Source: an uncultured bacterium
Lineage (GTDB): Bacteria > CAYUVA01
Assembly: GCA_964448115.1 (NCBI GenBank)
Contig: CAYUVA010000017.1
Coordinates: 62,001 to 82,556 of the forward strand
Reading direction: 5' to 3'
DNA length: 20,556 bases
The position numbers and the translations under genes are program-made. Shown here piece after piece: positions 5,861 through 11,961 of this stretch (position 1 is its first letter; each line of letters opens with the position of its first letter). Under the pieces are notes generated by a model that was not told the DNA's origin, made no database searches, and was given only the letters and a program-made list of their open reading frames with translations.

Positions 5861-8800
5861 ATGCCGACCTGTGAGAAATGCGGAACCAATAATGTAATCG
5901 GCAGCAAGTTCTGCTCCAACTGCGGAGCGCCTTTGCCGGAAAAGGGTAAGCTGATCAGGGAGCAGATATCACCTACATCATTCAAGGATGTGAGAAAACC
6001 ATTAGAGGAGGTCTTGGAGGGTCAATACGAGATCATTGATGAGATCGGCCGCGGGGGAATGGCTATAGTATATAAGGCGATCGATCTGAACCTGGAGAGG
6101 GTCGATGCCATAAAGGTGCTCCCGGTCGAGTTAGCATACGATAAGGAGTTTGTCGAACGCTTCCACCGTGAAGCCAAGATGGCGGCGCGGCTCCACCATC
6201 CCAATATCATCACCATCTATGCGGTAAAGCAGCACGAGAACCTCAACTTCATGATCATGAAGTACATCGACGGCAAGCCGCTCAAGAAGATCCTCAAGGA
6301 GCAAAAAACCCTGCCGGTCGAAAAGAGCATCCATATCCTCAAGGATGTCTGTAGCGCGCTTTTCTTTGCCCACAAGGAGGGTGTGATACACCGCGATATA
6401 AAGCCGGACAACATAATGATCGACCGCCACGACAATGCCATTGTCATGGACTTCGGCATTGCCAAGGCTGCTACCAGCACCGGCTTGACCACCGTTGGAG
6501 GTGTGATTGGAACCGCCAAGTACATGTCCCCTGAACAGATCAAGGGAGAGGCGGATAACCGCTCGGATCTTTACTCCCTTGGCATCGTTGCCTATAGGAT
6601 GCTGACCGGAAGGGTGCCCTTCACCGGTGAGGATAACTATACGATAAACTATAAACACCTCCATGATCCACCAGAGCCCCCCAGTAAATACAACCCTGCC
6701 ATCCCCAAGAAGCTAGAGGGCTGGATACTTAAGCTGTTGGAGAAAAATCCGAACCATCGCTACCAGTCTGCCCGAGAAGCGCTCGATGTGCTCGAGGAGA
6801 TCGAATATGAGCTTAAAAAGATGCACCAGGATATCTCCAAGATCTCAAAAACAAAGCCGGCTTCAACTACCGAGGAGATAAACGCCTACTTTAAAGAGGG
6901 CTTGGCTGCCTTCAACCAGGGCGAGTACGAGCGAGCAATCAGCCTTTGGGAGAAGCTATTATCGATCGATCCCAGCTATATAAAGGGCATCGAATACATC
7001 CAGAAGGCTAAACAGAAGATAGAGGATCAACAAACCATCGCCCAATTAATGCACGAGGCTAAGGAATACTACCAGGCGGGCAACTATCCGGAGGCGATCC
7101 GCTGCTGGGGTAAGGTGGTGGCGCTCGATGCCGAACAGGCGGAAGCCTTCGAGTGGATGGAGAAGGCTCGTGCAAAGATGAGCCACCTCGAAAAGATAGA
7201 GAAGCTGTTCCTTCAGGGCGATGACCTTCTCTCCAAGGGGGAGATCGAACAGGCGAAGGAGAAATTCCAGAAGGTGCTTCAGCTTGATCCCGAACACAAG
7301 GAAGCCATGCTGATGATCGAGGAGATAAGCGAGGAGGAGAAAAAGAGCCAACTCATCGGCGACCTTGTGGCAAGGGGAGACCAAGCCTACAATAATCGGG
7401 AATTCGAGCGGGCATTGCAGCTTTACGAGGAGATCTTTTCGTCCTATCCAGACCATTTGGCAACCGTAAAAAAGGTGGATCAGGTAAAGGATGCAATCAG
7501 AATAAGGGACCACCTCGATTACTATATAGAGCAAGCTAAGAAACTTGCTGATAATAAGGAGTATGAACAGGCGCTGAAGCTGTGGGAGGAGATCGTCTTT
7601 GTCAGCCCGGACAACGAGGAGGCAAAGAATAACCTTGAATCGGTTAAGCAGCTTTTCGAGAGGCAAAAGTTCGTAACCGAAAACCTCTCCAAGGCGCAAG
7701 AATCGTTTGAACAGGGCGATTATGCACAGGCTATCAAGCTCTGGGAAGCGGTACTTAATAAAAGACCCGAAGATAAACAGATCCTCGATAAGATCTTCGA
7801 GGCGCAGAAGCTGCTCGAGAAATCGCAGCGACTCAGTAAGCTCAGGGAAAAGGGATTACAACTATTCAATGAGCGCAATTACGAGGAAGCTTACCCGATA
7901 TTGGATGAGGCTTACCATCTAGATCCCCATGACAAGGAGATCTTCGAGGCACATAAAGAGACCAAACATATACTCAAGGTGCGCGAGATAAAACAGCTTA
8001 CCAGCCAGGGCAAGCAGTGCCTTGAGCAAGGCGATTACTCCGAGGCGGTACGCCTGTTCCACCGCATTCTGCAACTCGATCCCCAACAGGAACAGATCGC
8101 CCAGCTTCGTAACCAGGCAAGCGAAAAGCTCGAAAAGGAAAGGCTCAAGGAGATGCTGTTGCTGAAAGCAAAGAGCCTTCTTAAAGAGAAAAAAATACAT
8201 AAAGCCAAGAGCGCAATCGAGGAACTGATCGAGTTGGAGCCTGAAAATGAGGATGCCAGGCAGATCCAGCAAGAGATCGAAGAGCTTGCCGGGCAAATCC
8301 AAGCAAGTGAGCCAGAAGGCGAGGATGCGGAAGCCAAGGAAGCCCTGTTCATGGGAATAGAAAGCATCATCGCCGGACAAGCCCACCTTGCCAAGGAGTA
8401 CCTCCAGGATGCCCTGGAAATAGAGCCTAATAACCAAAGGGTCAGCAAGATCCTGCGTTCGCTCGGAGAGTTCACCCGACTGACCGAGGCAGGCAACCTG
8501 GTTGATGTCAACATGATGACAACCATCGAGACCTACATGGAGGAAGACTCCTCGTTCAAAAAACCGATCTACTTCGAGGAGGTGGCAGGTGAGGTAGGTA
8601 AACACTTTGATTATACCCCTGAAGCTGAAGGCAAGCCACTTTTGTGCCAATCCCCCAGCCTCGAAAGGATCATAAATCCACCCCAAGCGGATGATGATAT
8701 CGAATACACCGAGATGCCGATAGGTGAACACACCAGCCTTTATGTCCCTGAAGAACAGAAGGACGAGGAAGCTCAGGAAATAAAGCTCCCCTTCAAGGAA

Positions 8801-10291
8801 AGAACCAAACAGACCATCCTGAAGAACCCCATACTTCTGCTTGTCGCCTTTATCATTATCGCCGGCTCCATCCTCGCTGCCGTGCTTATAAAGCAGGGGA
8901 TCGAACATCGCAGACTGGAATACATACGGGATCTCTTCACCCAAGCACAGACCGCCTTTGCCCAAGGGCAGTTCCAGACCTGCGTCATCATCTGCGAGAA
9001 TATCCTGCAAGAGGATCCCCAACATCTGCAAACCAAGTCGTTGAAGGCAGAAGCGATGGCTCGTATAGAGGAGAAAAAGGAGAAGGAAAGGATCGATAAC
9101 CTGATAAAAACCAACCTGAGAGCCGCCGAGGAAGCTATGTCCAATAAAGATCCAGAGCAGGCGATAAAACTTTACGACCAGATACTTGAGGTAGTGCCGG
9201 ATAACGAGGTAGCCAAACTGCGCAGGGAGGAAGCGGTCGCCGCCTATGAGAAGCTGCAATGGGAGCGTAACCAAAAAAAGATGCTCGAAGAGAAAAAACA
9301 AGAGGCTAAGAAACTATTCGAGGAAGGCAATTGGCAGGAGGCGATCGAAACTATTGAGGTTATACTGGAGAAATCTCCCGGCGAACAGGAAATGATAGCG
9401 CTAAAGGAGAAAGCCAACCAAAGGCTCATCGCCGAGAAACTGAAGGAGACCATTGAGGGGTATAGAGAATCAGCCAAAAAAGCCTTTGAGAATAAACAAT
9501 ATAGCAATGCAGTGCACTACATGAACAAGGTTCTTGAATATCATCCAGATGACCAACAAGCAAAGGAGCTTATCGCTGAGGCTAAGAGGATAATGGCTGA
9601 ACGGGCAGCAAGGTTGGCGAGGAACCGAAGGATAAATGACCTGATCAATGTCATAGAATCTTATATTGCTAGCAACCGGTTCGATGATGCCATAGCCAAG
9701 GCTGAGGAGCTGCGACCCTTGTGGGCTGATAAGGCTGATGAGCTTGCTGAAAAAACATTAAAAACTAAAGCGAGGGTGGAAGCGGAAAGAAAACTTCAGG
9801 CAAAGATTGAAGACTTGCTATCCAAGGCAAAAACCGCATACTCGAACAAGGAGTACCAAAAAACCATTAGATACGCTAATGATGTGCTTGCGCTTCAGAA
9901 GGATAATCCAGATGCAATAAACCTGGTGGAGCTTGCCAATACCGCCATCGCCAACCTAGATATTACCGCACCGACCATCCAACATACACAGCCCGTATCC
10001 GAGGCGATAATAAAGACCGATATCGAGATTATCGCTAAGGTGGAGGACGATAAGGGTGAGCTTAAGTCAGTTACCTTGCACTGGAAGCATGATGGAGATA
10101 CCAAGTTTCACACTATCGATATGTACAAGAGGGGCGGAGCTGCCTGGCGCGCAAGGATCTCGAAACGAGATAATAATCAAGAGAAGAAGATAATTTATTA
10201 CATAACCGCACAAGATCCCGCTGGTAACAAAAGCGAAAGTTCAAAATATACCATCGAGATCACTGCTCCAGTGATACCAGGTCCGTGGTAA
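5861..10291 (+). CDS. Membrane-spanning Hanks-type Ser/Thr protein kinase with N-terminal zinc ribbon, TPR-like repeats on both sides of one TM helix, and a C-terminal Ig-like domain
   Basis: CxxC...CxxC ribbon (CEKCG..FCSNCG). Kinase motifs GRGGMAIVY, AIK, RFHRE, HRDIKPDN, DFG, GTAKYMSPE, SDLYSLG. TM helix ILLLVAFIIIAGSILAAVLI at about 8831-8890. C-terminal D.TAPTI.H....YYITAQD.AGN beta-sandwich. Confidence 0.95.
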   Translation: MPTCEKCGTNNVIGSKFCSNCGAPLPEKGKLIREQISPTSFKDVRKPLEEVLEGQYEIIDEIGRGGMAIVYKAIDLNLERVDAIKVLPVELAYDKEFVERFHREAKMAARLHHPNIITIYAVKQHENLNFMIMKYIDGKPLKKILKEQKTLPVEKSIHILKDVCSALFFAHKEGVIHRDIKPDNIMIDRHDNAIVMDFGIAKAATSTGLTTVGGVIGTAKYMSPEQIKGEADNRSDLYSLGIVAYRMLTGRVPFTGEDNYTINYKHLHDPPEPPSKYNPAIPKKLEGWILKLLEKNPNHRYQSAREALDVLEEIEYELKKMHQDISKISKTKPASTTEEINAYFKEGLAAFNQGEYERAISLWEKLLSIDPSYIKGIEYIQKAKQKIEDQQTIAQLMHEAKEYYQAGNYPEAIRCWGKVVALDAEQAEAFEWMEKARAKMSHLEKIEKLFLQGDDLLSKGEIEQAKEKFQKVLQLDPEHKEAMLMIEEISEEEKKSQLIGDLVARGDQAYNNREFERALQLYEEIFSSYPDHLATVKKVDQVKDAIRIRDHLDYYIEQAKKLADNKEYEQALKLWEEIVFVSPDNEEAKNNLESVKQLFERQKFVTENLSKAQESFEQGDYAQAIKLWEAVLNKRPEDKQILDKIFEAQKLLEKSQRLSKLREKGLQLFNERNYEEAYPILDEAYHLDPHDKEIFEAHKETKHILKVREIKQLTSQGKQCLEQGDYSEAVRLFHRILQLDPQQEQIAQLRNQASEKLEKERLKEMLLLKAKSLLKEKKIHKAKSAIEELIELEPENEDARQIQQEIEELAGQIQASEPEGEDAEAKEALFMGIESIIAGQAHLAKEYLQDALEIEPNNQRVSKILRSLGEFTRLTEAGNLVDVNMMTTIETYMEEDSSFKKPIYFEEVAGEVGKHFDYTPEAEGKPLLCQSPSLERIINPPQADDDIEYTEMPIGEHTSLYVPEEQKDEEAQEIKLPFKERTKQTILKNPILLLVAFIIIAGSILAAVLIKQGIEHRRLEYIRDLFTQAQTAFAQGQFQTCVIICENILQEDPQHLQTKSLKAEAMARIEEKKEKERIDNLIKTNLRAAEEAMSNKDPEQAIKLYDQILEVVPDNEVAKLRREEAVAAYEKLQWERNQKKMLEEKKQEAKKLFEEGNWQEAIETIEVILEKSPGEQEMIALKEKANQRLIAEKLKETIEGYRESAKKAFENKQYSNAVHYMNKVLEYHPDDQQAKELIAEAKRIMAERAARLARNRRINDLINVIESYIASNRFDDAIAKAEELRPLWADKADELAEKTLKTKARVEAERKLQAKIEDLLSKAKTAYSNKEYQKTIRYANDVLALQKDNPDAINLVELANTAIANLDITAPTIQHTQPVSEAIIKTDIEIIAKVEDDKGELKSVTLHWKHDGDTKFHTIDMYKRGGAAWRARISKRDNNQEKKIIYYITAQDPAGNKSESSKYTIEITAPVIPGPW

Positions 10292-10381: not shown

Positions 10382-10410
10382 TTGACACTGAATGAGTTAT
10401 TTATTATCAT
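10382..10410 (+). promoter_or_regulatory. Near-consensus sigma70 promoter placing +1 on or next to the ATG at 10417 (leaderless)
   Basis: TTGACA (10382-10387), 17-nt spacer, TATCAT (10405-10410), 6 nt, then ATG. No Shine-Dalgarno sequence. Confidence 0.75.
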
Positions 10411-10416
10411 CTTTAC

Positions 10417-11961
10417 ATGCACGCCCGGGTACTAGTTATCGTTTTTACCATAACCGCAGGCTTTGCCTTGATGGCTTACGGCGGCGATGTTATAGGCAGA
10501 GCACAGCGCATTGGGCAGAACGACCACGGCGGCATCCAGATATGTATCGGTGGTCAGGACTTCATACCTTCTCTTTCCATCCTGGGTGTGGGGCTAGCTG
10601 CTTTGGCAATGGGGATAATCCTTTATTTGGTAAGGTTTCAGGCGGTGTCAATCTGCCTACTGATAATATCTTTTGGCACATTAGGCTGGTGTGCGTATCT
10701 GAGATATACGACTACCGATTATGGTGGCAATTATATCTTCGAGGATGTCCCGGCTGGTGTCTATAAGGTTTCCGCCTTCGATTACCATGGCTATAGGGGA
10801 AGCTCTCATGACAACATAATCGTTCCAACAGATGGCATTGTGGTGGTGCCGGTGCTCTATCTTTACCCGCACACGGCTACACCGACCATAACCCCGACTT
10901 TTTTCACCTCCACGCCGACCTCTACCCCAACAATTACCCAGACTCCCACCATCACTCCCACTCCAACAAACACGCCAACCGGCACTAATACACCAACATC
11001 AACAAACACGCCAACTAACACAGCCACTCCCACCAGCACTCCCTTTACTCCATACTGGGAACAGCTTTATCCACAAAATCATCCCAGCGGAAGAAACGAC
11101 CATGTGATGGTCTATGACAGCCATCGAGGAGTCGTTTACCTGTTCGGGGGTTGGTCATCGGGCGGGGAGAAAAACGACCTATGGGAATATGACCCTCAGT
11201 CGTCCCAGGGGTGGAGCGAGCTGATCCAGTCCTTTTCTCGCCCCTCTCCCCGCGAGGATCACGATATGGTCTATGATATACAGAACCAAAGGGTGATACT
11301 CTTTGGTGGCACCGGTCCATCGGACGAAACCTGGGAGTTGAATCCCGCCACCATGGCTTGGACTCTCAAGACCCCCTCACCGCATCCATCAGCGCGCCAA
11401 AGACATGATATGGTCTATGACAGCGATCGCTCAAAGGTGATCCTGTTCGGTGGCTGGCCTTACAATGATGAGCTATGGGAGTACGATACCGCTGCCGGCA
11501 CCTGGAGCCAGATCAGCGCCAGCGGTCCAGTAGGCAGAAGCGGACATGAGATGGTCTATGATCATCATCGACACAAGGTTTACATGTTCGGTGGATATCC
11601 CAATTTCGAGGATGTACTCGATGATACCTGGCAGTATGACCCCTCGTCCGGCTCCTGGTCGATGTTTAATCCAAGCACCAAGCCAGGGGCGCGCGGCGGT
11701 CATGCAATGGTCTATGACCCGGTCAGGCGCAGGGCGGTCCTGTTCGGCGGCGATGGTGAGGAAGGGGCGCTTGATGATACCTGGGAGTTTGACCCGGTAA
11801 GTGGTGAATGGAGCCAAATACCCCAACAGACGCACCCTAATATTCGATTCTCCCATGACATGGTTTACCTCGGAGAGCTGAACATGACCATCCTATTCGG
11901 CGGAGAAGACAAGGATGGAGTTCAGAGAAGCGACACCTGGAAGCTCGCATCATCGCCATAG
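10417..11961 (+). CDS. Exported Kelch-repeat (6-blade propeller) protein with N-terminal carboxypeptidase-regulatory-like domain interrupted by a hydrophobic hairpin, and a Thr/Pro linker
   Basis: Signal peptide, then TTTDYGGNYIFEDVPAGVYKVSA (CarboxypepD_reg-like), a TPT-rich linker at about 10870-11050, and six repeats P..R..H.MVY(D)......LFGG....DxW. Confidence 0.9.
   Translation: MHARVLVIVFTITAGFALMAYGGDVIGRAQRIGQNDHGGIQICIGGQDFIPSLSILGVGLAALAMGIILYLVRFQAVSICLLIISFGTLGWCAYLRYTTTDYGGNYIFEDVPAGVYKVSAFDYHGYRGSSHDNIIVPTDGIVVVPVLYLYPHTATPTITPTFFTSTPTSTPTITQTPTITPTPTNTPTGTNTPTSTNTPTNTATPTSTPFTPYWEQLYPQNHPSGRNDHVMVYDSHRGVVYLFGGWSSGGEKNDLWEYDPQSSQGWSELIQSFSRPSPREDHDMVYDIQNQRVILFGGTGPSDETWELNPATMAWTLKTPSPHPSARQRHDMVYDSDRSKVILFGGWPYNDELWEYDTAAGTWSQISASGPVGRSGHEMVYDHHRHKVYMFGGYPNFEDVLDDTWQYDPSSGSWSMFNPSTKPGARGGHAMVYDPVRRRAVLFGGDGEEGALDDTWEFDPVSGEWSQIPQQTHPNIRFSHDMVYLGELNMTILFGGEDKDGVQRSDTWKLASSP

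Follow-up and report, generated by a model that had tools for sequence, protein, structure and literature searches.

Exosortases are widespread, and to our knowledge their chemistry, their acceptor and the rules by which they recognize substrates remain largely unknown. Among the described systems closest to the locus reported here is that of exosortase H (XrtH, TIGR04177) and its sorting signal IPTL-CTERM (TIGR04174). A further NCBIfam family, NF033207 (cut-off 45 bits), bears the name 'midcut-by-XrtH protein'; a search of the available papers returned none using this name. Sorting signals are also described away from the C-terminus. In the available part of one report, the enzyme ArtA cleaves the Haloferax volcanii protein HVO_0405 at a centrally located PGF signal (PMC7157517), and in the available part of the myxosortase paper sorting tags are said to function mid-protein (PMC11980579).

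The window (the whole stretch of DNA that was analysed, 20,556 nucleotides from an uncultured bacterium) contains a gene for a protein in which a domain is split by a sorting-signal-like hairpin, an anatomy that was confirmed to be real and conserved. The first-pass annotation of this window had delimited the split domain and the hairpin, and both its coordinates and its peptide strings were exact. Position 10483 is the first base of aa 23 and position 10869 the last base of aa 151; bases 10564-10695 encode the hairpin (aa 50-93). The features of the gene are listed below with the evidence for each.

10382..10410, + strand: promoter-like site matching 11 of 12 consensus positions, 6 bases 5′ of the ATG (consensus match only)
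10417..11961, + strand: whole gene, 514 aa (ORF listing and translation)
10417..10482, + strand: N-terminal signal peptide, aa 1-22, with the end A-Y-G immediately N-terminal to strand A (hydropathy; homologue leaders alike)
10483..10554, + strand: N-half of the sandwich (strands A and B), aa 23-46 (hhalign; BLASTP)
10564..10575, + strand: IPSL motif, aa 50-53 (Pro kept in 34 of 34 modules; TIGR04174 profile positions 1-18 align from here)
10576..10635, + strand: helix 1 (aa 54-72) and the sole basic residue, R73 (hydropathy)
10636..10695, + strand: helix 2, aa 74-93, signal-peptide-like (hydropathy; end G-W-C-A)
10696..10869, + strand: C-half of the sandwich (strands C to G), aa 94-151 (Pfam PF13620 at aa 96-140; hhalign)
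10870..11040, + strand: Pro/Thr-rich linker, approximately aa 152-208 (sequence reading)
11041..11958, + strand: Kelch beta-propeller passenger (Pfam Beta-prop_ATRN-LZTR1, 1.3e-52; Kelch_4, 2e-36)

The hydropathy profile of the 514-aa protein consisted of the signal peptide followed by two helices with R73 between them; in sliding 19-residue windows, hydropathy exceeded 1.5 at aa 1-26 and, without a break, at aa 48-95. The insertion comprises 47 residues (aa 47-93: IPSL, helix 1, R73 and helix 2). Since 441 residues lie C-terminal to R73, the IPSL-type signal of the window copy is not at the extreme C-terminus. Four promoter-like sites were found against 3.6 expected in shuffles, and the site at 10382..10410, if real, would yield a leaderless or nearly leaderless mRNA. 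Upstream of the gene, the ORF at 5861-10291 (+ strand, 1476 aa) was Ser/Thr kinase-like by reading of its translation, with long helical-repeat regions and one membrane helix, its C-terminal part lying outside.

The segments flanking the insertion had been proposed to be two halves of one domain. This was borne out when a profile of nine split modules was aligned by hhalign to eight unsplit repeats of the metagenome protein P0002 (99.2% probability, E 1.1e-18): aa 22-46 and aa 94-152 mapped onto one contiguous domain interrupted by a single 47-residue insertion, with aa 23-46 falling on positions 1-25 of those repeats. P0002 is composed of tandem unsplit repeats that share the N-half signature of the modules, and the N-halves of these repeats were 48% identical to that of the window copy by BLASTP. 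The Pfam family CarboxypepD_reg (PF13620) matched the window copy at aa 96-140 only, on profile positions 30-73 of 82, and scored 19.0 bits with the whole protein and 22.5 bits with the N-terminal 151 aa, below the gathering score of 32.3. As this match starts at position 30, the second half of the domain is present and the first 29 profile positions are absent from the contiguous match. Relatives passed the PF13620 cut-off (the paralogue on contig C62, 36.8 bits; the protein P0210, 33.9 bits; the copy in genome G191, 38.1 bits), with matches confined to profile positions 24-81. The relatives in the PDB (NOMO, the B domains of SdrD and a cohesin-side cellulosomal module) likewise matched the C-half only. 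By profile alignment, aa 23-46 and aa 94-151 are thus predicted to be one CarboxypepD_reg-type (transthyretin-like) beta-sandwich with the insertion in its B-C loop.

The split module was found in 34 copies, comprising 4 in this genome, 24 in the small phylum candidate division CSSED10-310 (in 11 of the 14 genomes examined) and 6 in metagenomes. The first-pass annotation had suggested a search for paralogues of the same architecture in the genome and its relatives, and this search yielded three paralogues on contigs C46, C4 and C62 (E 2.7e-24 to 8.3e-9) and 30 further homologues. Because the layout is conserved across these proteins, with the Pro kept in every one of the 34 modules, the feature is considered real. 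Carriers made up 4 of 401 genomes sampled across the domain, and three of the four belonged to CSSED10-310. A locus search with a narrowed alignment returned seven genome loci, already in the set, and three additional metagenome loci. A whole-library profile search returned 40345 proteins at E ≤ 0.001 and was dominated by multi-repeat proteins; the split form was not found among the 150 of these matches that were listed, nearly all of them multi-repeat proteins of up to 7796 aa with 9 to 69 matched stretches each.

The passengers of the N-terminal modules vary (Kelch and other propellers, a beta helix and FGE-sulfatase domains), which indicates that the module, and not the passenger, is the unit. 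In a 1014-aa CSSED10-310 protein (L100:635-3679, - strand, G410:C71) the module stands at the C-terminal end, behind a beta-helix-like passenger, in the usual place of a sorting signal; no Pfam family was matched by this protein at 1e-5. None of the 34 copies took the form of two adjacent genes, and no module gene adjoined XrtH. Stop codons were present in two modules, L085 (G409:C102) and L083 (G401:C226), one inside the C-half and the other 14 residues past the matched stretch; these may be decaying copies or assembly errors.

The conservation of the IPxL-like motif, another point raised in the first-pass annotation, was evident from the alignment as [VIL]-P-[ATS]. The Pro was invariant in all 31 aligned modules and in three extra metagenome copies, and was preceded by V, I or L in 30 of 31 and followed by A, T or S in 30 of 31. 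At least two R or K residues followed helix 1 in 30 of the 31 modules, the sole exception being the window copy, with one (R73). The topology of the hairpin fits the positive-inside rule, with both halves of the sandwich outside and the basic loop inside, and the tethers on either side of the hairpin are 3-7 residues long.

Helix 2 ended in [AVSTGLIC]-x-Ala (small-x-Ala) in 29 of 31 modules by a rule-of-thumb count; this rule is permissive, since it was also met by 17 of the 31 helix-1 ends examined as a control. The window copy, with Trp at position -3 of the helix-2 site, was one of the two exceptions. The leaders of the homologues are hydrophobic and have a small-x-Ala end immediately N-terminal to strand A. 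As leaders and helix 2 both end in small-x-Ala, each half of the sandwich appears to be preceded by a segment resembling a cleavable signal peptide. Many CSSED10-310 modules have a lipobox-like G-L-S-C four residues ahead of the conserved Ala, and helix 2 might be a lipoprotein signal peptide in that clade; this element was absent from the four modules of the present genome.

The first-pass annotation had observed that the window holds no exosortase gene. The genome itself does not lack one: an exosortase H gene lies on another contig (G000:C2:147687-148241; TIGR04177, 96.8 bits, cut-off 86), directly downstream of a gene for a 958-aa choice-of-anchor-J protein with an IPSL-type tail. Cys90, Arg131 and His150 of XrtH, which we take to be its catalytic residues, were invariant in four aligned orthologues. 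The end of the XrtH gene is overlapped by the downstream gene for a 196-aa membrane protein (L033:8213-8803, + strand, G000:C2) with no NCBIfam match, weak relatives of which (24-28% identity) are neighbours of XrtH-like genes in G022, G343, G191 and four more genomes.

XrtH-like genes (E ≤ 1e-10) were present in 21 of the 401 genomes, that is, in all 4 carriers of the module and in 17 of the 397 others. They were also found in 14 of 14 CSSED10-310 genomes; since they are universal in that phylum, the co-occurrence of enzyme and module rests on two independent lineages and not on four. Along its full length, the XrtH of this genome shared 47-52% identical residues with its CSSED10-310 counterparts; identity to 10 other XrtH-like genes was 28-45%, mostly in partial alignments.

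The likeness of the internal segment to IPTL-CTERM, which the first-pass annotation had noted and proposed to score with the family profile, held in part. The IPSL motif aligned from the first position of TIGR04174, but the window copy scored 11.4 bits with the whole protein, 7.8 with the N-terminal 151 aa, 16.7 with the isolated 36-mer and 14.2 in a genome scan, all below the cut-off of 20.5. As sub-threshold matches to TIGR04174 were also obtained in 9 of 14 control genomes, the IPTL resemblance of the window copy, taken alone, is not beyond chance.

A comparison within the genome was made with its own tails. In nine ORFs the C-terminus consists of [ILV]-P-[ST]-[LM] followed by a helix and basic residues, and a profile built from these nine tails was run against the full set of 7733 ORFs of 80 aa or longer. 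The two best matches outside the training set were the internal segments of the paralogues on C4 (25.2 bits, 4.9e-6) and C46 (13.7 bits, 0.02); the window copy scored 4.8 bits (E 12) and the C62 paralogue nothing. No C-terminal tail was present in any of the four module proteins of this genome. Ordinary C-terminal tails of the IPTL type were also found in CSSED10-310 genomes. The residue after the Pro was Ala in none of the 9 tails and none of the 4 internal motifs of this genome, and in 6 of 12 tails and 17 of 27 internal motifs among the CSSED10-310 and metagenome copies. A Gly six residues past the Pro was counted by eye in 16 of 21 tails and 22 of 31 internal motifs. Within the family, the window copy is the least typical member and the one whose signal features are weakest, and it may be processed less well than the others.

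The reading favoured here is that the split domain is a conserved anchoring module whose internal sorting signal would be processed by XrtH. The cassette in the B-C loop would consist of an XrtH-type tripartite signal ([VIL]-P-[ATS], a membrane helix and a basic cytoplasmic loop) followed by a signal-peptide-like helix. Strands A and B would be exported by the N-terminal signal peptide, helix 1 would stop transfer, and helix 2 would restart export of the remaining sandwich and the passenger. XrtH would then cut the internal motif as it would a C-terminal tail, and signal peptidase I would probably cut after helix 2. These cuts would separate the sandwich from the hairpin and leave it as a domain of two chains, with the XrtH anchor moiety attached to the end of strand B, such that an enzyme specific for C-termini would tether the protein by its N-terminal domain.

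Several observations argue for processing by XrtH: the presence of XrtH and IPTL-type tails in the genome, the conserved motif, the co-distribution of enzyme and module, the Ala site of helix 2, the lack of a second tail on the module proteins, the C-terminal module of the 1014-aa CSSED10-310 protein, the precedents for mid-protein signals and the lineage match at the residue after the Pro. The case is weakened by the scores of the window copy, which fall under every threshold (TIGR04174, the tail profile and NF033207), by its single basic residue and the Trp of its helix-2 site, by the permissiveness of the small-x-Ala rule, by the fact that a Pro at the start of a helix and a basic cytoplasmic loop are generic in membrane hairpins, and by the restriction to two lineages with neither a module gene beside XrtH nor a two-gene form. 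On this evidence, processing of the internal signal by XrtH is judged to be about evenly balanced between true and false. Its most specific version is doubtful. Here the hairpin would be a disposable cassette removed by XrtH and signal peptidase, and the two-chain sandwich would leave the inner membrane held together by strand complementation; the two-strand piece would carry the exosortase-added anchor and tether the large passenger by its N-terminal end.

The strongest alternative is that the hairpin is a plain, uncleaved anchor. Both helices would then stay in the inner membrane, an intact sandwich and its passenger would sit on the outer face, and the likeness to an XrtH signal would be either generic or left over from the origin of the cassette. 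The predicted topology is consistent with this reading without any cut (signal peptide, helix 1 running out to in, loop inside, helix 2 running in to out), and tethers of 3-7 residues imply that the B-C end of the sandwich can rest on the membrane. The poor quality of the window copy and the C62 paralogue as sorting signals, and the fit of helix-1 ends to the small-x-Ala rule, also agree with it. An uncleaved signal anchor would, however, be a far simpler route to the same result, and the cleavable leader, the invariant Pro with constrained neighbours and the near-invariant Ala at the end of helix 2 are constraints that fall exactly at both junctions. The confinement of the module to lineages with one XrtH subclade would be left unexplained, and two of the paralogues are the best proteome-wide matches to genuine tails. 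The plain anchor is regarded as a serious possibility that falls somewhat short of an even chance, and processing by XrtH is favoured over it.

The first-pass annotation had also raised excision of the hairpin followed by rejoining of the halves. In such a reading, an acyl intermediate formed by XrtH at the motif would be attacked by the new amino terminus that signal peptidase creates after helix 2, the hairpin spliced out and the sandwich resealed. What agrees with this reading is permissive only: the junctions neighbour each other in the fold, with the insertion within one loop; conserved, site-like residues lie at both junctions; and relatives of exosortases are thought, in the available part of the myxosortase paper, to be transpeptidases (PMC11980579). 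Rejoining is nevertheless very improbable, as it has no precedent, no cassette is needed to encode a soluble resealed product, and the helix-2 site is followed by any of A, F, L, Y, G, V, S, D and Q, a variation that is unlike a dedicated nucleophile.

That a frameshift, a misassembly, the insertion of a mobile element or a wrong start merely mimics an insertion is so improbable as to be negligible: an overlapping alternative frame (10392..10766, + strand) is open for 124 aa and the insert has a G+C content of 0.47 and the gene one of 0.53, but 33 other proteins, encoded in 11 further genomes and 6 metagenome records, share the in-frame layout, the insert is single-copy with no flanking repeats of note, and hydrophobic codons account for its low G+C. 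The 171-base insert region had one full match, itself, in the 3.98-Mb genome, together with 13 others of at most 21 bases each (E ≥ 0.59), and since it is unique the insert is not a repeat element. Insertion of a repeat or mobile element was rejected on these grounds and for want of meaningful flanking repeats. A frameshift or alternative frame was rejected after all three frames were read, the main frame being the conserved one, and the 124-aa frame gave no sign of use. Translation from Met65, which would make helix 2 the true leader, was rejected because leader and N-half are kept in all homologues.

The split-domain module may represent a new way of anchoring proteins. It is a conserved family in which the signal lies inside a small, well-understood fold, beside a second likely cleavage site. 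Cutting of such a reporter would give two fragments that are easily distinguished, and any attached moiety would be carried on a peptide of about 28 residues, a size suited to mass spectrometry. If processing by XrtH holds true, a sorting enzyme specific for C-termini could be used, by way of a split domain, for tethering at the N-terminal end, which would be of interest in protein engineering. If XrtH were to rejoin the halves, this would be protein splicing by a sorting enzyme; and if there is no processing, a hairpin in one loop of a domain would still be an unusual anchoring arrangement.

Compared with the IPTL-CTERM signal of the exosortase H system, the window copy is alike in its motif, its helix, the single basic residue that follows and the presence of XrtH in the genome, but differs in that its signal occupies aa 50-73 of the 514 residues, within a domain, with a second helix and 420 more residues C-terminal to it, and scores below the cut-off. 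NF033207, by its name a family cut mid-protein by XrtH, shares the order of leader, internal XrtH-type signal and further protein, and matches to it run collinearly over leader, signal and second hydrophobic stretch. Three of nine modules matched this family weakly and collinearly at 14-18 bits: the C4 paralogue (18.0 bits, residues 12-95 on profile positions 6-80), a second paralogue (16.9 bits) and the G022 copy (14.2 bits), with positions 25-117 matched in one of two paralogues. Membership was rejected, as the window copy gave no match at E ≤ 10 and the paralogues reached at most 18.0 bits against the 45 needed. No true member of NF033207 was found in the 401 genomes at E ≤ 1e-7, and a search with the best-scoring fragment also returned none. 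In a separate observation, the C62 module (L012:1489-1950, - strand, G000:C62) matched NF058595 weakly (11.6 bits, E 0.26); this family is named 'lipo-invert putative C-terminal anchoring domain', by its name a curated anchoring idea that may be related.

The architecture had been called undescribed in the first-pass annotation, which was too strong, given the collinear layout of NF033207 and the cutting by ArtA of a central signal in HVO_0405 (available part of PMC7157517). HVO_0405 is like the module in that an exosortase-family enzyme cuts a tripartite signal away from the C-terminus; as described in the available part of that paper, it is unlike it in being a strain-specific fusion of two independent genes, and not a signal within one fold or a conserved multi-copy module (PMC7157517). 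The internal MYXO-CTERM of Myxococcus MXAN_5598 is likewise an internal tag for which processing is proposed, and the segment downstream of it has a fate of its own. It differs, as far as the available part of the paper describes it, in its myxosortase enzyme class and in being a proposed gene fusion and a single case with no split domain (PMC11980579).

The nearest likeness in cassette was found in a 1460-aa protein (L077:1697-6079, + strand, G343:C9) from the same phylum as most modules. Between its PKD/Ig-repeat passenger and its beta-helix passenger lie an IPTL-type signal, a basic loop and a helix that resembles a signal peptide and ends in G-F-A. The protein has a normal C-terminal tail as well, and at 31.8 bits it was also the best NF033207 match found. 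Unlike the module, this same cassette joins two passengers and splits no domain, and by its layout the protein looks like two exosortase substrates in one ORF.
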